A stretch of 64,000 bases of DNA from Spirochaetia bacterium (GTDB taxonomy: Bacteria > Spirochaetota > Spirochaetia > DSM-27196 > Salinispiraceae), in contig JBBRCZ010000003.1 of assembly GCA_038204425.1 (NCBI GenBank), positions 150,383 to 214,382 of the forward strand. The letters run 5' to 3'. This document shows positions 9,117-35,282 of the stretch, piece after piece. The translations under genes and the position numbers were made by a program. The notes beneath the pieces were generated by a model. That model was not told where the DNA came from, searched no databases, and saw nothing but the letters and a program-made list of their open reading frames with translations. The first letter of the stretch is position 1; each line of letters opens with the position of its first letter.

Positions 9117-12100
9117 TTATTCAGATAAGAAGTAATCCTTGTCGTAACCAAGGTCTCTTGAGTGTGGGTAGCGGCGCAGCAAAACACTAAAGTACTTACG
9201 AGCTTCATCGGGACGTTTGGTTTTCTTATAGTAATCACCCATTATTCGATAAGCATCGTAGGTTTGGCGGTTATCGTATTTTTCTAAATAGGCTTTGGTC
9301 GCATATGGTTTTACTAACTCCATCGCCTCAATCCAGCTACTTTGTTCAGGCATATTGTTGAGCAGCCTTGCTCGTTCTATATCAATGTACATCTTGCCGG
9401 GGCCTGTTAATGACATGGCCAAAAACGTCCCCGTCGCGATTACAAAAACCACAACTGCCACAATAAAGACGGGTCTAAAGTGTTTAAACTCCAAAGCCGC
9501 TATGCGCTTCCTAAAGATGATTACCGGTATCATTAGCAGTGTCAGAATCAGGCCAATATATTCATCAGCACTGCGTTGGTAAACCAATTCAACATCTGCC
9601 TGTTCTGGATAAATCAACATAAAACCTGGCGCCACTGGATAGAGCTTCTCGCCGTTTTTGGACTTCCAACTTGGCGCAAAAGAAATCTTGATAATATGAG
9701 GTTTGCCAACTTGCGTGGTTTTAAACGTCACCAAGTGATCGCCTACAGATTCGTTGCTAACTTGTGCCAGAGTATGTGTTTGAGCATAGGACCGCCATTC
9801 GTCGCTGCGGAAGAAGCGTTGATGAATATCATCGTAACTTCCAAAGTTGCTAGCTACTTTCTGTTTTAACAAGTCATCGCTAAAGGACTCGGGCACAAAA
9901 GGACGTGCCACTAGTTCATAGTCTCTATAGAAGCGGTAGAAATCAGTCTTAAATCCACCCGCAGAGTCTTTGACTATCGACAAAGCATCGCTGGGCAAAA
10001 TGTCTATATAGGAGCTCTTAAAGCCCTTAAATTCAAAGACATGAAACTTGCCCCATGCTCCAAACAGCTGAAAGTCGGGGTGATTGCGAAAGTGTTCAAG
10101 AATACCATCAGAGTAGGCAATTATAAAACGGGCATTGGCTTGCGTAAAGCGAAGTGGCCAGGTTGGCGGATCAACTTTTGAATAGAGTCGATGGGCCTCT
10201 GGGTCAACTGGACTTGGTGAGTAGGTGCTCTGTAGATAAGTTGTCTGACGTGACATAAAACTAGACCCATAATGTATGCCTTCCATAGAAGGTCGACCCG
10301 TAAAGTGGAAGAGGTTTTCAAAACCGCGCTCGGAACCAAAGTCGGCGTTATCGGCTTGTGGTTGTTTTTCCCACAAAATTCTTCCGTCATTAATGTTTCC
10401 TCGCACCGCATCTGACATTGCCGTGAGGTTGTTCCATTCTCGTTTGTCTTCGTAACCTGTATAGTTCCAGCGGAACCAGCCAGGGGCATTTACGCCAATT
10501 AAAGGTATAAGCACAAGTGCTATTATCAAAAATACTAGTACTGCTAGCGGACGTACCACGCCCTGCTTAAATTTTTTCATGGCCAAAAAGTTTGACTCCA
10601 TAAAAATCATGTAAGCAAAGATTGAGACAATCAGTGCAGCAGGTACAAAGCGAATGCCCGGAATCTCCAGTACCGTCGCTGCGAGAAACATAAAGGCGCA
10701 GGCCGCCATCGCATAAAGAATGTACGCCCCCTGATAAGCAAAGCGATTGGGACTTCCATCTGCAAGTAAAGCGTTTTTGCTGCGCCTGTTCTGAAATATT
10801 ATGGCAATTGCTGCTATGCTTGCCCCAACCCAAACGGGCATCAACATGGTGCCAGCGGCCTCGGCAAAGCTATTAAAGTGCCAAATCATAGAAATACTTT
10901 GGGCCCACTTCCGCGTCAGTACCATTGGCACAATCCAAAAACCCATCATAAGTACGCCAACCAGGTAAGTAAAGGGAATCTGTAGAACCAGTGCTTGGGG
11001 ACGGGCTTCTAGCAGTGCCAACGCCGGCAGCCTGGCCTTTTTTTCCTTAGCAAAAAAATGTCGTGATCTAAACGCAAAAAAGAATGGCAAAAAGAAGGCC
11101 ACCATCAAGACAAATATATGAGATAGGCCAATTATGCCCAGCAGCACGCCAGACTTTAGCGACCAGGTTCGGCTGTGGTGATCCTTCCAAACTGAAGCAA
11201 TAAAAAGTGGCAAGAAAGCAATGGCCCAAGAGTAACAGAACTCACCAGCGAAGGTCGACAAGAGATTGCCGCCAAACATGGTGTAGCTCTCGTTAAATAG
11301 GAACAGTAAGCTTAAACTGCTGCCAGCAAGTGCCGTCCAGTGATTCTTGCTCATCGACTTAACAGCAAAGAACGTTGTTAGGGGCAGGGCAAAGATCCCA
11401 AGAAAGGTGGCAATCTTGAGGGCCACAGTAAGCGGCATTACGTAGCCAAGTAAGGCGGGAAGCAAAAAAGGTAGAACGAAGTAATGCTGACCTTCGAGGT
11501 AGCCAAAAAAGTTTGAGTGGCTGTAGCCAAAAAGTCTTAGGTTGGGCAAAAACTCCTCTTTTAGTGCTTGGAGTGGTTGATACCAAGAGGCCGTGTCTCC
11601 ACCCGTAACTATAGTATCTGTAAAGAGAAGTGGGAGTTCAAAGCGAGACAACATAAAGAAATAGATCACAAAAAGGCCAACTAAGGAACTCAAGACAACA
11701 AAAGATTTTTTCTTTACCAAGCGATTAAGACTGAGTAACTTGTTGTGCCTTAGAAAAAGTTTGGTTTCTTTGCTTCGATTGACAACAATCAGGATTGCAA
11801 GTGGGTAGGCAATTGCCAGAGCCAATAAAAACGTTATGCCAAGGATTTTGATTAAGGCGTGAATAACTGCTATTGTTGCGACGGTAATAGCTTGTGAACT
11901 GTCTACCGCGCTAGCGCTCTTGTCAAAAAGCCCAACAATTGCCGAACTTGCCTCGCGGGTAAACTGGGCAAAGCCGCCACTTAGCATTTGCGAGATGGTA
12001 TCGTTAAAGCCATTTAGGTTGCTCACATACCAGGTAACAACGCCAAGCACCGCGACATGCATCATTAAGACAGCGCCCCATTGGGTAGTTGCAACGCCGA

Positions 12101-12368
12101 TTCGCTTAGATCGCAGCAAAAATAAGCCAGAAACCAGCAAATAAATTGGTACGAGCACCAATACCAAGGAAGAAACAGCAGTTTGCGTAGAAAAGATAAA
12201 GCTGTTGCTAGGAAGTGTCAAAAAACTTGGAATCAGTAGGCCAAGTCCGTATATCCCCGGTATTAGGCCTATCAAACCCACCAAAAGGTTGAAAAGGCCC
12301 AAACGGCTTAAGTGAGAAGGGACTTCAAAAGATCTATTGCTTAGCGTTGCTTCACTCGGGTTTGACAT
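9117..12368 (-). CDS. Large polytopic membrane protein, GT-C/'PTPS-related'/YfhO-like glycosyltransferase, with C-terminal TPR-like helices
   Basis: More than 13 hydrophobic segments; GGDTASWY after a TM helix, FGGNLLSTFAGEF, WFRWNYTGYE, LIKISF.P.W-like motifs; AAGGAG SD. Confidence 0.6.
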   Translation of the reverse strand: MSNPSEATLSNRSFEVPSHLSRLGLFNLLVGLIGLIPGIYGLGLLIPSFLTLPSNSFIFSTQTAVSSLVLVLVPIYLLVSGLFLLRSKRIGVATTQWGAVLMMHVAVLGVVTWYVSNLNGFNDTISQMLSGGFAQFTREASSAIVGLFDKSASAVDSSQAITVATIAVIHALIKILGITFLLALAIAYPLAILIVVNRSKETKLFLRHNKLLSLNRLVKKKSFVVLSSLVGLFVIYFFMLSRFELPLLFTDTIVTGGDTASWYQPLQALKEEFLPNLRLFGYSHSNFFGYLEGQHYFVLPFLLPALLGYVMPLTVALKIATFLGIFALPLTTFFAVKSMSKNHWTALAGSSLSLLFLFNESYTMFGGNLLSTFAGEFCYSWAIAFLPLFIASVWKDHHSRTWSLKSGVLLGIIGLSHIFVLMVAFFLPFFFAFRSRHFFAKEKKARLPALALLEARPQALVLQIPFTYLVGVLMMGFWIVPMVLTRKWAQSISMIWHFNSFAEAAGTMLMPVWVGASIAAIAIIFQNRRSKNALLADGSPNRFAYQGAYILYAMAACAFMFLAATVLEIPGIRFVPAALIVSIFAYMIFMESNFLAMKKFKQGVVRPLAVLVFLIIALVLIPLIGVNAPGWFRWNYTGYEDKREWNNLTAMSDAVRGNINDGRILWEKQPQADNADFGSERGFENLFHFTGRPSMEGIHYGSSFMSRQTTYLQSTYSPSPVDPEAHRLYSKVDPPTWPLRFTQANARFIIAYSDGILEHFRNHPDFQLFGAWGKFHVFEFKGFKSSYIDILPSDALSIVKDSAGGFKTDFYRFYRDYELVARPFVPESFSDDLLKQKVASNFGSYDDIHQRFFRSDEWRSYAQTHTLAQVSNESVGDHLVTFKTTQVGKPHIIKISFAPSWKSKNGEKLYPVAPGFMLIYPEQADVELVYQRSADEYIGLILTLLMIPVIIFRKRIAALEFKHFRPVFIVAVVVFVIATGTFLAMSLTGPGKMYIDIERARLLNNMPEQSSWIEAMELVKPYATKAYLEKYDNRQTYDAYRIMGDYYKKTKRPDEARKYFSVLLRRYPHSRDLGYDKDYFLSE

Positions 12369-22663: not shown

Positions 22664-22692
22664 TTGACATCATCCATAGCTGGCGATAGAAT
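22664..22692 (+). promoter_or_regulatory. Near-consensus sigma70 promoter of the E1-lipoyl-FabH fusion gene
   Basis: TTGACA-N17-TAGAAT, followed by GAGGAG SD and GTG 22741. Confidence 0.7.
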
Positions 22693-22740
22693 GCCAGCAG
22701 ATAAAATTGGATTTGTTGTTTTGGCCTCGAGGAGTTTATA

Positions 22741-25700
22741 GTGAGTAAGAATGCCCTCCAGCTTGAGTTGTTTCTATCAGTGTTTCGCAACATGGTGGCG
22801 TCACGAGAGATAGACATACTGGAACAGGACTATACCCAGCGCGGTGAAGCGTTTTTTCATGTTTCTGGCACTGGTCATGAGAACATTGCCTTCCTCAATA
22901 CACATTTGATTCCAGCTGACTATCTCCATTGTCATTATCGTGACAAATCCTTGATGTTGGCACGGGGCTTGAGTATAGAACAGTTTTTCTTAAGTCTTTT
23001 TTGTAAAGACAATAGTCACAGTCGTGGTAGGCAAATGTCTGCTCATTTGTCGGATCCGGACCTTCACATAATGAGTTTAGTCGGACCGGTTGGAAACAAT
23101 GCCCTTCAAGCGGTGGGAGCAGCTTCGGCTATAAAAAACCAAAGTCAGAACCCAATTGTACTATGTGGTCTAGGCGATGGAACATCGCAACAAGGTGAAG
23201 TGCTAGAGGCGATTGCTCATGCAGTTCGCCAGACACTGCCTGTCTTGTTTGTGATCCAAGACAATACCTGGGCAATTTCAACCAAAACCGAAGGGCAGAC
23301 TTTTTATAATACACCTGATGGCGATGCTGAGCAGTATTACGGCATTCCTATTGTGCGTGTCGATGGCAAAGATGCGCATAGTTGTCACGACGTATTTGGC
23401 GAGGTAGTAGCGTCTATGCGCAAAACTCGTAAGCCGGCCATAATTATTTTTAAAGTTGCTCGTATTAACAGTCATACCAACGCTGACGACCACCGTATGT
23501 ATCGCAGTGCCGAAGAAATAGAGGCCACGCGAGCCAGTGGTGACCCCCTAGTCCCCCTAGAGGCATGGTTCCAGACCCAAGGTATTGCCAGCCAAGACTT
23601 AAGTGCTATCCGTCAAGAGATTAAAGAAACGGTCCGCAAGGCAGCCGAGGCAGCTCAATACAGCCCAGAACCCAAGGCCATCTACGACGCCAAAGCGGTA
23701 TTACCAGCAAGTTTATTTGACTTAGCCAGAGAAAATAGAGGTGATGAGGCCCAGGGACAGGTGGTTATGCTTGAGGCCCTTAGAGTGACTCTCAAGAACC
23801 ACTTGGAGTCTGATGCAGACGTCTGTTTGTTTGGAGAAGATATTGAGGACCCCAAGGGTGATGTTTTTGGCGTCACCCGAGGCCTTAGTCAGGCTTTCCC
23901 TGATAGAGTTGTCAATTCGCCCTTGGCAGAGGCTACCATTGTGGGTGTAGCAGTAGGGCAGGCCCTTGCTGGCAAAAAACCTGTGGCTTTTTTGCAATTT
24001 GCCGATTTTTTCCCTATCGCCTTCAATCAGATATTTGCTGAACTGGGCTCGATGCACTGGAGAACTGACGGTGCTTGGAAATGCCCGGTAATATTAATGG
24101 TCACCTGCGGTGGCTACAAGCCGGGCTTGGGTCCATTTCATGCTTCGAGTATGGAGTCGATTGCCGTTCACACTCCAGGTGTGGACGTTTTTATGCCTTC
24201 TTCGGCGGCAGATGCGGCGGGTCTTTTAAATGCGGCCTTTGAGTCAAAACGACCCACGGTCTTCTTTTATCCCAAGAGTTGTCTCAATGATCGCAGTCAA
24301 GCGACATCCACCGATATACACAAACGATTTGTTCCGATTGGAAAAGCACGCTTGGTGCGATCGGGTAGTGACTTTACCTTTGTTGGCTGGGGCAATACCG
24401 TGGCTTTGTGTCGTCAAGCCGCAGACGAACTAAGTAAAGTGGGGATTAACAGCGATGTAATTGACCTGAGATCGCTCTTTCCATGGGATCAAGAAACTGT
24501 TTTAAGTTCCGTAAAACGAAGTCGTCGTATGATTATTGCTCAAGAAGATAGTCATAGCGCCAGTTTGGCAAGTGAAATAAGTGCCACTATCTCTGAACTG
24601 ATAGTTGGCGAAATTGTAGTCAAAAGAGTCTCGCGACCTGACACGTACGTGCCTTGTAATTTTGGCAACCAATTGGAAGTTTTGCCATCCTACCAAAAAA
24701 TTCTAGAAACCGCCGTTGAGATTTTAGGTGCAAGTATTAGTTGGCAAAAAGACCAGGTTGCCGAAGACGGATACGCCTTTATTGAGGCAGCCGGATCTAG
24801 CCCTTCAGATGAGTCAGTCACCGTTATCCAATGGCGAGTAAAACCTGGTGATGTGCTCAAACCAGGCATGCCGCTAGCTGAGATGGAAGCAGATAAGGCT
24901 GCTTTTGAGCTTTCTTGCCCAATCGGCGGCACGCTGACTCAAGTCTTGGTTCCAGTGGGCATGATGGTAAAGGTTGGTACACCTTTACTGGTGGTTGCTA
25001 TAGAGGGGCGTAAACCAGTAATTAAACCACTTACAAGAGAAAACCCAGGTATACCAACTATCGTTTTACCTGAAATCCAAAAATCAAAAAGCATAGTCAG
25101 TGACCACCACGAGCTACATGAGTCTGGCCGCTACAATCGGCCCAAGTTTTCACGGGCTATGCCGGTTGCTGGTATTGCTGGGATAGTGGCAGTTCCTGGC
25201 TCTATTGCAGTATCCAACACACAGATAGCCTCCAAAAGTAGTGACTGGGATGCTCAGGATATTTTCAAGCGGATCGGTATCGAGAGTCGTTACTGGGTGG
25301 CTGAGAGTGAAACCACAACCTCATTAGCTATTAAGGCAGCACAAAAATTGCTCAAGGCGCATAAACTAAAGGCGTCTGATTTGAGCGCGGTCATCTGTAC
25401 AACCGGGACTCCCGATATAATGACGCCTAGCCTTGCTTGTTTGGTGCTTGATGCTTTGTCCAAAGATCTCAAAGAGTCGCCCTTGATTCCGGCTTGGGAT
25501 ATTAATGCTGCATGCTCAGGCTATTTATATGGCCTTCAGGCTGCCTGGGATCACTTGTTGCACGAGCCTAGTGGCAAAGTTTTGTTGGTAAGCAGTGAGG
25601 TGCTTTCTAGAAAAACTGACCCCGTTGACTCAAGTACCGCACCGATCTTTGGCGACGCGGCAACGGCAACGCTGATACTTGGCTGGGACAACTTTAAACA

Positions 25701-26163
25701 GTTTAAGTGGTTGATAGAACGACCCGTTTTGGCTGCCAAGGCCGAAAGTGGCAAAGCCTTGAGTGTGCCGCTCAAGACTGGCGAATATGTCCACATGGAT
25801 GGACCCAAGGTTTTTCAAGAAGCGGTGCGCCATATGGTGCTACTTCTAGAAAAAGCCTGCGCACAAAGTGGTATCAAGGTTAGTGACCTAGATTTAGTTG
25901 TACCACATCAGGCCAACCAAAGAATCATAAATGCTGTCAGACAAAAAGCAAAACTCGACGAAGATCAGGTTTATAGTAATATCCGACACTACGGAAATAC
26001 TTCATCATCATCGATTCCGATTGCCTTGGCCAAAATTTTGGACGAAGGCCACCAAGCCAAGTCGATAGGTCTATGCGCCTTTGGTGGAGGCTTTACGTTT
26101 GCAGGAGGCATTCTTCGTGTGCCCGATCAACAAAACGCAAACTTTGCCAGTCAGGAAGAATGA
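22741..26163 (+). CDS. Fusion: 2-oxoacid dehydrogenase E1alpha + E1beta + lipoyl domain + beta-ketoacyl-ACP synthase III (FabH)
   Basis: ThDP motif GDG(145-147)...QDN; E1beta FGEDI..KGDVFGVT, AEATIVG, QFADF, GPFH; lipoyl EMEADKA (K719); FabH triad AACSG (C925), PHQAN (H1056), GNTSSS (N1086), FGGGFT. Confidence 0.9.
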   Translation: MSKNALQLELFLSVFRNMVASREIDILEQDYTQRGEAFFHVSGTGHENIAFLNTHLIPADYLHCHYRDKSLMLARGLSIEQFFLSLFCKDNSHSRGRQMSAHLSDPDLHIMSLVGPVGNNALQAVGAASAIKNQSQNPIVLCGLGDGTSQQGEVLEAIAHAVRQTLPVLFVIQDNTWAISTKTEGQTFYNTPDGDAEQYYGIPIVRVDGKDAHSCHDVFGEVVASMRKTRKPAIIIFKVARINSHTNADDHRMYRSAEEIEATRASGDPLVPLEAWFQTQGIASQDLSAIRQEIKETVRKAAEAAQYSPEPKAIYDAKAVLPASLFDLARENRGDEAQGQVVMLEALRVTLKNHLESDADVCLFGEDIEDPKGDVFGVTRGLSQAFPDRVVNSPLAEATIVGVAVGQALAGKKPVAFLQFADFFPIAFNQIFAELGSMHWRTDGAWKCPVILMVTCGGYKPGLGPFHASSMESIAVHTPGVDVFMPSSAADAAGLLNAAFESKRPTVFFYPKSCLNDRSQATSTDIHKRFVPIGKARLVRSGSDFTFVGWGNTVALCRQAADELSKVGINSDVIDLRSLFPWDQETVLSSVKRSRRMIIAQEDSHSASLASEISATISELIVGEIVVKRVSRPDTYVPCNFGNQLEVLPSYQKILETAVEILGASISWQKDQVAEDGYAFIEAAGSSPSDESVTVIQWRVKPGDVLKPGMPLAEMEADKAAFELSCPIGGTLTQVLVPVGMMVKVGTPLLVVAIEGRKPVIKPLTRENPGIPTIVLPEIQKSKSIVSDHHELHESGRYNRPKFSRAMPVAGIAGIVAVPGSIAVSNTQIASKSSDWDAQDIFKRIGIESRYWVAESETTTSLAIKAAQKLLKAHKLKASDLSAVICTTGTPDIMTPSLACLVLDALSKDLKESPLIPAWDINAACSGYLYGLQAAWDHLLHEPSGKVLLVSSEVLSRKTDPVDSSTAPIFGDAATATLILGWDNFKQFKWLIERPVLAAKAESGKALSVPLKTGEYVHMDGPKVFQEAVRHMVLLLEKACAQSGIKVSDLDLVVPHQANQRIINAVRQKAKLDEDQVYSNIRHYGNTSSSSIPIALAKILDEGHQAKSIGLCAFGGGFTFAGGILRVPDQQNANFASQEE

Positions 26164-33465: not shown

Positions 33466-33945
33466 ATGCTTACCGTTCTGTTTCCAGGTTCATTTGATCC
33501 TCCAACCAATGGGCACTTAAATTTGATCCATAGATCAGCGACTATCTATGACCATGTACATGTAGTCGTGGCCGTAAACAACCAAAAGTCGTATACTTTT
33601 AGTGCCGAAGAGCGACTAGAAATGATGCAGAAAATTTGCGCGCGGTTTAGCAATGTAAGTGTTCACCTCTGGGACAAACTGGTGGTTGAATTTGCGCGTC
33701 AAGTTAAGGCTCGCGTCATGGTAAGAGGAGTAAGGGCCTTGGCAGACTTCAATTACGAGTTTGAGTTATCTATCCTAAACAAAGGACTTGATCCAGATAT
33801 CGAAACAGTCTTTATGCCAACTGATCCCCAATATTTTGTGCTACGTTCGTCCGCAATCAAAGAACTTGCTCGCCTTGGTGGTGATATTTCCAAGATGGTT
33901 CCTCAAGAAATAGTGAAAGACGTTATCGCCAGAATGCGAAAATAA
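33466..33945 (+). CDS. coaD: Pantetheine-phosphate adenylyltransferase
   Basis: FPGSFDPPTNGH, VRGVR..DFNYE, SSAIKELA. Confidence 0.96.
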   Translation: MLTVLFPGSFDPPTNGHLNLIHRSATIYDHVHVVVAVNNQKSYTFSAEERLEMMQKICARFSNVSVHLWDKLVVEFARQVKARVMVRGVRALADFNYEFELSILNKGLDPDIETVFMPTDPQYFVLRSSAIKELARLGGDISKMVPQEIVKDVIARMRK

Positions 33946-33991
33946 GTTGACCTGCATAAGCCGATGATAGCATTTTTGATTTAGGCGACTA

Positions 33992-34020
33992 TTGACATCT
34001 ATGTTGCTATCCGGTAAGGT
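33992..34020 (+). promoter_or_regulatory. sigma70 promoter of rpmF-acpP-rnc
   Basis: TTGACA-N17-TAAGGT. Confidence 0.5.
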
Positions 34021-34058
34021 GCTAAACAATTATTGTTAATAAGTGAGGAAGAGTTAAC

Positions 34059-34247
34059 ATGGCAGTACCAAAGCATCGTACCTCTAAAGCGAGGACACGA
34101 CGCCGAGCCTCCATAAACTCCAAGCTTGTAGTTTCAAGCTTGTCGGAATGCCCTAACTGCGGTGGTATGAAAATGCCACACAGAGTGTGTCCCAAGTGTG
34201 GTTTTTATAGAGGAAAGCAAGTAATCAATCCTGAAAATCTGGCATAA
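34059..34247 (+). CDS. rpmF: 50S ribosomal protein L32
   Basis: MAVPKHRTSK, CxxC...PHRVCxxCG. Confidence 0.96.
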   Translation: MAVPKHRTSKARTRRRASINSKLVVSSLSECPNCGGMKMPHRVCPKCGFYRGKQVINPENLA

Positions 34248-34289
34248 TACCGGAATGTACATGTCCGGATACAACAATTGGAGGAAGCA

Positions 34290-34529
34290 ATGGCTGATGA
34301 ATTGTTCGAGAAGTTAAAGAAGTTGATCGCTGACAAATTGGAAGTCGAGGAGTCTAAAATTACTCCCGAAGCATCTTTTCGCCAAGATCTTGGTGCAGAC
34401 AGCCTTGACACGTATGAATTGGTGTACGCGATAGAAGAAGAGCTTGGAATTCAAATTCCAGACGAAAAAGCAAACGAGTTCGAAACCGTCAAGGACGCTC
34501 TGGAATTTATTCGTTCTGCTCAGAAGTAA
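34290..34529 (+). CDS. acpP: Acyl carrier protein
   Basis: DLGADSLD phosphopantetheine site; GGAGG SD. Confidence 0.96.
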   Translation: MADELFEKLKKLIADKLEVEESKITPEASFRQDLGADSLDTYELVYAIEEELGIQIPDEKANEFETVKDALEFIRSAQK

Positions 34530-34556
34530 GCTTTTGTAACTGCTGATTGTAAAAGA

Positions 34557-35282
34557 ATGAGCGTAAAGCCAGCCTTTGACGATGAGCGAAAACGTTTATT
34601 ACTATCGTTTCAAAAAAAATGTAAACTTAGGTTCAAGAGCTTAGAGCTTTTGAACCTTTCTTTTTGTCATCGATCTTGGTCAAATGAAAAATCTGACAAT
34701 CCCCATAACAATGAGCGGCTAGAATTTTTGGGTGACTCGGTTCTGGGCATGGTTGTCGCTGGCTATCTTTTTGAAAACTATCCGCACTATTCCGAGGGAG
34801 AACTCGCCAAAATTAAGGCTTTTGTAGTGTCAGAAGAGAGTCTGGCATCAATCGCGCTTAGCTTGCACCTGCCTGACTTTTTGCTTTTGGGCAAGGGTGA
34901 AGAGATGTCCGGCGGCAGAAATCGCAAGGCAATTCTCGCCGACGCTTTGGAAGCCGTCATCGGGGCCATCTACTCAGATTCTGGCATAAAGAATGTTCAA
35001 GACTTTATATTGGCCGTACTGATTCCGGAAATTGAGAATGTAGTTAACGACAAACACAAAAAAGACTATAAAACACTATTGCAAGAAGCCGTTCAAAAAA
35101 ACTACAAAATGTTTCCACGCTATGTTTTGACCAGCAAGTCTGGTCCAGATCACGATAAGATCTTCTGGATGGAAGTCCATATTGCTCAAGAAAGTTTTGG
35201 TCCGGCAAGTGGTAGCAATAAAAAAATGGCCGAACAAGCTTGTGCTCAAATCGCGTGGCAGGCACTTTTCTCTTTAACCTAG
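34557..35282 (+). CDS. rnc: Ribonuclease III
   Basis: NERLEFLGDSVLG, ADALEAVIGAIY, dsRBD DYKTLLQE...GPDH. Confidence 0.96.
   Translation: MSVKPAFDDERKRLLLSFQKKCKLRFKSLELLNLSFCHRSWSNEKSDNPHNNERLEFLGDSVLGMVVAGYLFENYPHYSEGELAKIKAFVVSEESLASIALSLHLPDFLLLGKGEEMSGGRNRKAILADALEAVIGAIYSDSGIKNVQDFILAVLIPEIENVVNDKHKKDYKTLLQEAVQKNYKMFPRYVLTSKSGPDHDKIFWMEVHIAQESFGPASGSNKKMAEQACAQIAWQALFSLT

Follow-up and report, generated by a model that had tools for sequence, protein, structure and literature searches.

A single-chain E1-lipoyl-KAS III fusion protein as a candidate coenzyme A-free primer synthase for branched-chain fatty acids

Gene and domain organization

The window analyzed here is a 64,000-nucleotide stretch of contig JBBRCZ010000003.1 from a Spirochaetia bacterium of the Salinispiraceae (assembly GCA_038204425.1, hereafter the source genome). 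We focused on one gene at 22741..26163 on the + strand, an uninterrupted open reading frame (ORF) of 1140 aa with a GTG start and zero internal stops. An initial annotation had described its product as one chain made of the alpha and beta parts of a thiamine diphosphate (ThDP)-dependent 2-oxoacid dehydrogenase (E1alpha and E1beta), a lipoyl domain and a beta-ketoacyl-acyl carrier protein (ACP) synthase III (KAS III, or FabH). This organization was borne out by six Pfam domains in the ORF, and no Pfam match to the E2 core (2-oxoacid_dh, PF00198) was found in the 1140-aa protein. The features of the gene are as follows, with the basis of each assignment in parentheses.

22664..22692, +: sigma70-type promoter-like TTGACA-17-TAGAAT (11/12 consensus bases)
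22730..22734, +: Shine-Dalgarno-like AGGAG, 6 nt 5' of the GTG (sequence)
22741..26163, +: whole ORF, E1alpha-E1beta-lipoyl-linker-KAS III, 1140 aa (ORF, Pfam, homologs, AlphaFold2 model)
22789..23679, +: E1alpha, aa 17-313, with ThDP/Mg motif GDG145..N175, loop His245 and pocket F39, Y66, R67, M99 and H102 (Pfam E1_dh, aa 17-313, 4e-48; PDB sequence matches)
23767..24678, +: E1beta, aa 343-646, with E397, QFADF419-423 and H467 (Pfam Transket_pyr, aa 343-515, and Transketolase_C, aa 534-646; Foldseek)
24772..24999, +: lipoyl domain, aa 678-753 (Pfam Biotin_lipoyl, aa 692-751; strands in model)
24895-24897, +: lipoyl-Lys719 in EADKA (sequence)
25078..25155, +: flexible linker, aa 780-805 (predicted local distance difference test, pLDDT, < 50)
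25165..26121, +: KAS III/FabH domain, aa 809-1127, with triad C925, H1056 and N1086 and with R844, N1059 and R1061 kept (Pfam ACP_syn_III, aa 920-979, and ACP_syn_III_C, aa 1040-1126; alignments, Foldseek)

All motifs named in the initial annotation were located at the claimed places (GDG145, QDN173, SHTNADD244, FGEDI364, KGDVFG372, QFADF419, GPFH464, K719, C925, H1056 and N1086). Its near-consensus sigma70 promoter stood as a match of 11 of 12 bases, and this is a consensus match only, with three such sites against 1.2 +/- 1.3 in shuffled sequences. The ThDP/Mg motif, alpha-loop His, beta Glu and beta His that characterize an E1 of the alpha2beta2 type were all present. Across 150 sequences, F39, Y66, R67, G145, N175 and H245 of E1alpha and E397, F420, D422, F423 and H467 of E1beta were invariant, and lipoyl-Lys719 was conserved in 463 of 464 alignment rows.

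An AlphaFold2 model based on the 150-sequence alignment had a pLDDT of 94.0 and a predicted template modeling score (pTM) of 0.74, and the linker at 780-805, before the KAS III domain, was its sole long low-confidence stretch. Residues 676-1131 folded alone gave a pLDDT of 91.9 and a pTM of 0.81, both being confidence scores only. Foldseek matched the E1beta part to Thermus branched-chain E1 (1um9_B, template modeling score, TM, by target 0.93) and the tail to FabH (TM by target 0.91-0.93), and no PDB chain among the matches listed covered both the E1 and FabH parts. In a mean-field coevolution analysis of 464 rows (effective 293), lipoyl-FabH pairs made up 7 of the top 100 pairs vs 34% of all pairs; the top lipoyl-FabH pair had a z of 5.6, and A720-I1063 had 5.5.

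An assembly artefact, which the initial annotation had allowed for, was ruled out by the same architecture in relatives and by contigs of three DNA runs that cross all the domain junctions without gaps or mismatches; these runs came from two studies, two of them possibly being this assembly's own source, and no contig spans the whole gene. No RNA run was listed among those carrying the sequence.

Loss of the CoA clamp in the KAS III domain

E. coli FabH stacks the adenine of coenzyme A (CoA) between Trp32 and Arg151 (PMC4606726), and both residues were kept in all five PDB FabH alignments shown. The corresponding positions of the window protein are D840 and S964, i.e. the clamp that marks FabH is absent. 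This was a general property of the fused domains: among 234 of them (155 proteins and 79 loci, duplicates kept), Trp was found at the Trp32 position in 2 and Arg at the Arg151 position in 1 (Lys in 9). In contrast, the stand-alone KAS IIIs of the carriers had Trp in 24 of 28 and Arg in 25 of 28, with Lys in the other three. They were collected in two sets, one with both residues in 9/9 (4 of 13 loci without a match were dropped) and one with Trp in 15/19 and Arg in 16/19 (the other 11 loci were fusions). This difference supports, at the level of sequence, the initial suggestion that CoA is probably bypassed. Lys214 was ruled out as a marker of fused domains because stand-alone spirochaete FabHs are also without it.

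The KAS III fold and its Cys-His-Asn triad were retained. Of the catalytic and pantetheine-side residues, the 234 fused domains keep the Cys in all cases, the His in 233 and the Asn274 equivalent in 234, as well as the equivalents of Asn247 (228), Arg249 (228) and Arg36 (162), and in the larger alignment H1056 and N1086 were kept in 462/464 and 461/464 rows. Since the His and Asn of FabH stabilize the malonyl enolate and serve malonyl decarboxylation (PMC10054515), the fused domain should still condense; conservation of the His, the Asn and the Arg249 equivalent would be consistent with condensation of a primer with malonyl-ACP. Most members have Trp, Arg, Met, Tyr, Phe or His at the Thr28 position (W836 here), and at the Arg151 position Phe, Pro or Tyr is found.

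KAS III in the position of the E2 core

The view that FabH sits in the slot of E2 is supported by sister proteins in which the same head ends in an E2 core. We scanned 30 of the 150 representatives, picked because their length was odd or their match partial. In 13 the E1alpha-E1beta-lipoyl head was followed by an E2 core (one with an ACP and one leading into a polyketide synthase/nonribosomal peptide synthetase, PKS/NRPS), and a thioesterase, an unknown tail and FabH-KR-ACP were found once each. We examined an E1 tree of 84 heads (FastTree, root on one distant E1 as a long-branch outgroup), in which E2-tailed chains fell outside a group of 54 (support 100). Besides 48 FabH-tailed proteins, this group took in three E2-tailed ones, the two chains with the thioesterase and the unknown tail, and one tailless row. 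In the KAS III tree, one branch (97) separated 46 fused from 31 stand-alone domains. Only P0287 and P0290 keep Trp32, and of the fused proteins they are the deepest-branching on both trees. The trees would fit a history in which an E2-tailed ancestor had its E2 core replaced by FabH and the clamp was then lost, with later swaps.

Sister proteins have an E2 core or a thioesterase where the fusion has KAS III, some of them in E2-ACP or E2-ACP-PKS/NRPS form. The KAS III domain might accordingly be a transacylase only, an E2 surrogate that takes the acyl group off lipoamide and transfers it to holo-ACP or CoA but condenses nothing, as the acyltransferase domain of QncL does. FabH does have a transacylase side activity. 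In work by Davies in 2000, however, transacylation is said to need only the Cys, and the near-complete retention of His1056 and Asn1086, the residues that act on the malonyl enolate, makes this explanation a rather improbable one.

Several sister proteins are possible 2-oxoacid-fed loading modules of secondary metabolism. In P0306 (2895 aa) the head is fused to E2-ACP-KS-MT-ACP-C-A, in P0317 it is followed by E2-ACP, in P0247 by FabH-KR-ACP, in P0269 by a thioesterase and in P0264 by a 240-aa tail without a Pfam match.

Genome context and helper genes

The source genome is 95.6% complete. As the initial annotation had stated, no E2, E3 or separate fabH is present in the window; this agrees with its ORF list, and the genome-wide matches all lie elsewhere. 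Of its three E2 genes, one lies with sucA, a second with pdhAB-lpd-lplA and the third with a sugar-type fused E1; the genome also has two E3 genes over the cut-off, LipA and an LplA-type ligase, and E3 was over the cut-off in 19 of 20 carriers. Thus, the arm of the fusion could be lipoylated and re-oxidised.

The initial annotation had also taken the missing fabH as evidence for its proposal and asked whether carriers lack a stand-alone fabH or E2. The argument did not hold: a stand-alone FabH lies beside fabG and fabF in the source genome, another KAS III was found in 24 of 25 carriers, and an E2 elsewhere in 20 of 20. The fusion as sole initiator replacing fabH was therefore ruled out, and it appears to be an added initiator. 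In one genome, G293 (99% complete, 2.2 Mb), the fusion (C5:1872575-1875931) was the only KAS III match and may be the main initiator. Similarly, the position before ffh, which had been offered as evidence, was not conserved in the other seven spirochaete carriers, and a conserved link to ffh was ruled out.

With an E2 core in all 20 carriers, gene content leaves a CoA detour possible, in which the fusion is tethered but CoA-dependent: an external E2 core would make acyl-CoA for the fused KAS III, and the fusion would only co-locate the steps. The Arg36, Asn247 and Arg249 equivalents mostly kept in fused domains agree with such a detour, and an adenine site might be rebuilt from the aromatic residues or Arg at the Thr28 and Arg151 positions; these residues could instead form a docking patch for the lipoyl domain. 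Yet almost none of the fused domains has Trp32 or Arg151, which the stand-alone enzymes of the same genomes retain, no E2 gene was found beside the fusion in the best 80 of at least 544 confirmed loci, which were examined for taxonomy and neighbours, and a private lipoyl domain without an E2 core or binding domain would be of little use. We regard the detour as unlikely.

The same 80 loci had no neighbour family shared between phyla, the largest being an aconitase-like family at 13 loci in spirochaetes. No ACP neighbour was found in them with the source genome's own ACP as query, a short-chain dehydrogenase/reductase (SDR) gene was near in 5, and an E3 gene lay directly 3' in 1. The latter is a locus of a Syntrophobacteraceae metagenome-assembled genome (L110, 6001-10763), where the E3 gene starts right after the fusion. 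These data bear on whether the fusion is a secondary-metabolite enzyme that couples ThDP carboligation with KAS III condensation to make an acyloin or polyketide starter. Carbazole and acyloin pathways provide a precedent, one relative carries FabH-KR-ACP, another has the head fused into a PKS/NRPS, and the SDR genes could be read in the same way. The absence of an ACP neighbour or a neighbour family across phyla, and a near-invariant lipoyl-Lys that carboligation does not need, make it very improbable.

Other genes of the window and of the source genome were also noted. The genes coaD, acpP and rnc occur together at 33466-35282 of the window without fab genes, and FabH, fabG and fabF are on contig C4. 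A glycine cleavage H-protein (PF01597; 48882-49274, -) adjoins glmS and may serve as a lipoyl relay; neither a P nor a T protein was apparent in the window. A 1083-aa ORF at 9117-12368 (-) had no Pfam match. Elsewhere in the source genome, a fused 818-aa E1 with E3 and an E2 without the DHR motif lie beside sugar-metabolism genes (C7:127263-132565), and sucB, sucA, succinyl-CoA synthetase and succinate dehydrogenase genes (assigned by eye) form an operon (C18:27394-36124), a sucAB-succinate dehydrogenase arrangement that is to our knowledge unusual for a spirochaete.

Distribution of the fusion

The homolog search scored at least 1822 matches among 8000 candidates, and among the 120 matches listed the same six Pfam domains were found in the other 119 (52-68% identity). 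A second query gave 989 proteins at E <= 1e-250. Carriers belonged to at least 7 phyla, and the best 80 loci were from Spirochaetota, Planctomycetota, Verrucomicrobiota, Armatimonadota, one cyanobacterium, Syntrophobacteraceae and alpha-, beta- and gammaproteobacteria. The occurrence was patchy: the fusion was present in 8 of 301 genomes of its own phylum (one copy broken) and in 1 of 161 genomes of a Rhizobiaceae sample. A cluster look-up of 10 representatives put names to two proteins only, both from metagenome-assembled genomes. Named carriers, whether cultured or otherwise known, include the R. tropici group, Devosia, Oceanispirochaeta, Cysteiniphilum, Fangia, Facilibium and Caedibacter. 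Cysteiniphilum, Fangia and Facilibium have branched fatty-acid profiles; the word "anteiso" is absent from the papers found on them.

A natural split form was considered for a genome of the same family, G280, and judged unlikely. Its locus (L050; C1, 5823-9315) has three ORFs with 4-base overlaps, and because the breaks fall inside E1alpha and the lipoyl domain they look like frameshifts rather than fission. Short lipoyl-FabH matches, 10 of the 120 being inspected, mostly start in the E1beta tail or lipoyl domain and therefore look like fragments; no true stand-alone lipoyl-FabH was shown among these 10. No paper describing the fusion was found in the open-access full-text literature, a scope outside which most subscription journals lie, nor was a description found in the sections consulted of PMC12971839. 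The fusion is real, widespread and apparently uncharacterised.

Substrate of the E1 head

Against PDB sequences, the E1alpha part scored 122 bits with Thermus branched-chain E1, 110 with human branched-chain E1 and 84-87 with pyruvate dehydrogenase (PDH). The GRQMxxH loop and F39, Y66, M99 and H102 align with Thermus branched-chain E1, in which we take the counterparts of these four residues to be the substrate pocket. The fusion was the only E1 found in the source genome that resembles that of the branched-chain 2-oxoacid dehydrogenase (Bkd) complex, and a proteobacterial Bkd E1alpha fragment matched the fusion alone. Also, no free Bkd E1beta was evident among six Transket_pyr matches in this genome, and IlvD/Edd-family and aminotransferase IV genes were present. 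The earlier claim that the substrate is probably branched gains some support from the E1alpha scores and from the Rhizobium clade match described below.

The same CoA-free relay could instead run on pyruvate or 2-oxobutyrate, in which case its primers would be straight, with an even or odd number of carbons. The best NCBIfam E1 scores were with sub-threshold PDH models, the Pseudomonas (P. putida) branched-chain E1alpha scored 64 bits, below PDH, G115 and V117 are presumably PDH-like, and G293 is without another KAS III match. In addition, some Devosia carry the fusion, and the major fatty acids of their family, Devosiaceae, are described as straight-chain (PMC7179689). A straight-chain substrate is still quite unlikely in our view, given the loop and pocket residues aligned with branched-chain E1, the PDH and FabH that the source genome already has, and the Rhizobium match, which points to an iso acid. 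Substrates of the fusion may differ between lineages.

The Rhizobium tropici/rhizogenes clade

Among 121 Rhizobium genomes, the fusion was found in all 32 that were tropici/rhizogenes-like and in 1 of 89 others. The 32 genomes with a PlsX at least 93% identical to that of R. tropici (two partial) were exactly those with an 88-100% fusion, and the sole carrier among the other 89 (G471) had a 60% copy. The description of this clade as Martinezella (2026) lists iso-C15:0 3-OH among its major acids (PMC13077888), which points to branched primers. Since iso-C15 needs an isovaleryl primer, 2-oxoisocaproate is predicted as the substrate in this clade. The major acids given for R. tumorigenes, from another clade, do not include iso-C15:0 3-OH in the part of the description consulted (PMC5998023). 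Free proteobacterial Bkd did not track the clade: its E1alpha was found in 5 of 10 in-clade vs 9 of 12 out-of-clade genomes, and no free Bkd was found in four in-clade genomes rechecked, including the rhizogenes record.

In all 10 clade loci examined, the fusion lies directly after olsE, and olsC is near in 8; this is a membrane-lipid setting. One locus of the R. tropici group (L140, 4184-14085) contains an AAC(6')-family acetyltransferase, olsE, the fusion, a PspA-like/flotillin-like insert (by eye), olsC and a ClC channel. The initial annotation's role in primary metabolism is supported in the form of a lipid role, by the olsE adjacency and the lack of a shared neighbour family. In the sections consulted, the Ols-enzyme paper (PMC3972451) makes no reference to this neighbouring ORF, and the terms "fabH", "branched" and "2-oxoisovalerate" are absent from the CIAT 899 genome paper (PMC3557214).

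Proposed mechanism

With moderate confidence, we propose that the fusion is a single-chain enzyme that would make primers for type II fatty-acid synthesis from branched-chain 2-oxoacids without CoA. The E1 head, whose residues are intact, would decarboxylate a 2-oxoacid on ThDP and reductively acylate the lipoamide on Lys719, for which the Lys, LipA and LplA are present. In the key step, suggested by the architecture and the clamp loss, the lipoyl arm would swing to KAS III and pass the acyl group to Cys925 without CoA or E2. His1056 and Asn1086 would then decarboxylate malonyl-ACP, and condensation would give a branched 3-oxoacyl-ACP for FabG, FabZ and FabF. An E3 borrowed from another complex would re-oxidise the arm in trans. 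Because the E1 and FabH families are both two-fold dimers, a homodimer of the fusion would suffice. The ordinary FabH would keep making straight-chain primers from acetyl-CoA, with the fusion as a portable one-gene add-on for iso/anteiso acids.

Several points weigh against this proposal. The E2 found in all 20 carriers examined keeps the CoA detour open in every case, and the residues at the Thr28 and Arg151 positions could form a new adenine-stacking site. M99 and H102 vary in distant members (26 and 19 of 34, respectively), and together with the low P. putida Bkd score this means that the substrate is not fixed by sequence; the Devosia carriers with their straight-chain family point in the same direction. 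The lipid A of R. leguminosarum/etli contains branched 3-OH-15:0. The Rhizobium match concerns a single clade and hence one event, the clade was drawn by one marker (PlsX) with 3 of 32 genomes named (tropici, rhizogenes and leucaenae), and the absence of iso-C15:0 3-OH outside it comes from the major-acid list of one paper (PMC5998023) and from general knowledge. Finally, the E1 tree was made with FastTree only and rooted on a single long-branch outgroup, and three E2-tailed proteins lie inside the FabH group.

A broader interpretation, whose chances we see as evenly balanced, is that the fusion represents an undescribed entry into fatty-acid synthesis: a mobile one-gene module, spread across many phyla, in which FabH would receive its primer from a lipoamide thioester instead of acyl-CoA and which gives a straight-chain-lipid bacterium branched acids, being the source of the diagnostic iso-C15:0 3-OH in the tropici/rhizogenes clade. 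The E1alpha-E1beta-lipoyl head would then be a loading module of general use for 2-oxoacids, on which the acceptor (E2, KAS III, thioesterase or PKS/NRPS) can be exchanged. If true, this would add a further initiation route, bring the chemistry of 2-oxoacid dehydrogenases and of fatty-acid synthase together in a single polypeptide, and explain why branched lipids occur in groups that have no free Bkd complex. Hundreds of entries labelled "transketolase" or "beta-ketoacyl-ACP synthase 3" would need correcting, and branched-chain lipids or fuels could be made with a one-gene tool that spares the CoA pool. The R. tropici copy makes the idea testable in a symbiont that is cultured and open to genetics and whose lipids provide a ready read-out.

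Comparison with known systems

Judged by its domains, the fusion belongs neither to the Bkd complexes (no E2) nor to the canonical FabHs (no clamp), and it probably does the work of both. The canonical iso/anteiso route runs from BKD through CoA to FabH (bioRxiv 10.1101/2025.09.03.673897). Like a Bkd complex (E1alpha2beta2/E2/E3) with FabH, the fusion has the E1 fold and catalytic residues, a lipoyl arm and a Cys-His-Asn KAS III, probably with the same net outcome. Unlike them, it is one chain without an E2 core or a match to the E3-binding domain, no acyl-CoA step is expected, and the Trp32/Arg151 clamp is lost. Besides, the E2 genes of the source genome sit in other operons, whereas Bkd has its E2 in the chain or operon. 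The fused domain shares with FabH (E. coli 1HN9, Aquifex 2EBD, TIGR00747) the fold, the triad, Asn247, Arg249 and a GFGG-type oxyanion loop (AFGGG1113-1117). It differs in scoring below the NCBIfam cut-offs (247.5 vs 249; 214.5 vs 292.1), in lying behind a lipoyl domain and in forming its own branch apart from stand-alone KAS IIIs.

QncN/QncL/QncM and SclQ1-4 resemble the fusion in that a ThDP enzyme, a lipoyl domain and an acyl-accepting domain deliver an acyl group to an ACP system, QncL joining E1beta, lipoyl and acyltransferase domains (PMC6335953). In those systems, an E2-type acyltransferase encoded in a gene cluster loads a dedicated ACP with glycolyl from a ketose phosphate (PMC6335953), whereas in the fusion a condensing KAS III would be the acceptor, E1alpha is part of the chain, and neither a gene cluster nor PF00198 is present. 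The all-in-one E1alpha-E1beta-lipoyl-E2 proteins (P0275, P0301, P0302 and others) share the head (33-52% identity) and the same order up to the lipoyl domain; they have an E2 core in place of KAS III, lie mostly outside the FabH-tailed group and are apparently uncharacterised. Known starts of fatty-acid synthesis use acyl-CoA with FabH or decarboxylated malonyl-ACP (PMC10869286). Like the MadA/MadB malonyl-ACP decarboxylase and P. putida FabB, the fusion would be an alternative to acyl-CoA with FabH; those enzymes turn malonyl-ACP into acetyl primers, and none of them is described there as using a 2-oxoacid or lipoamide (PMC10869286).

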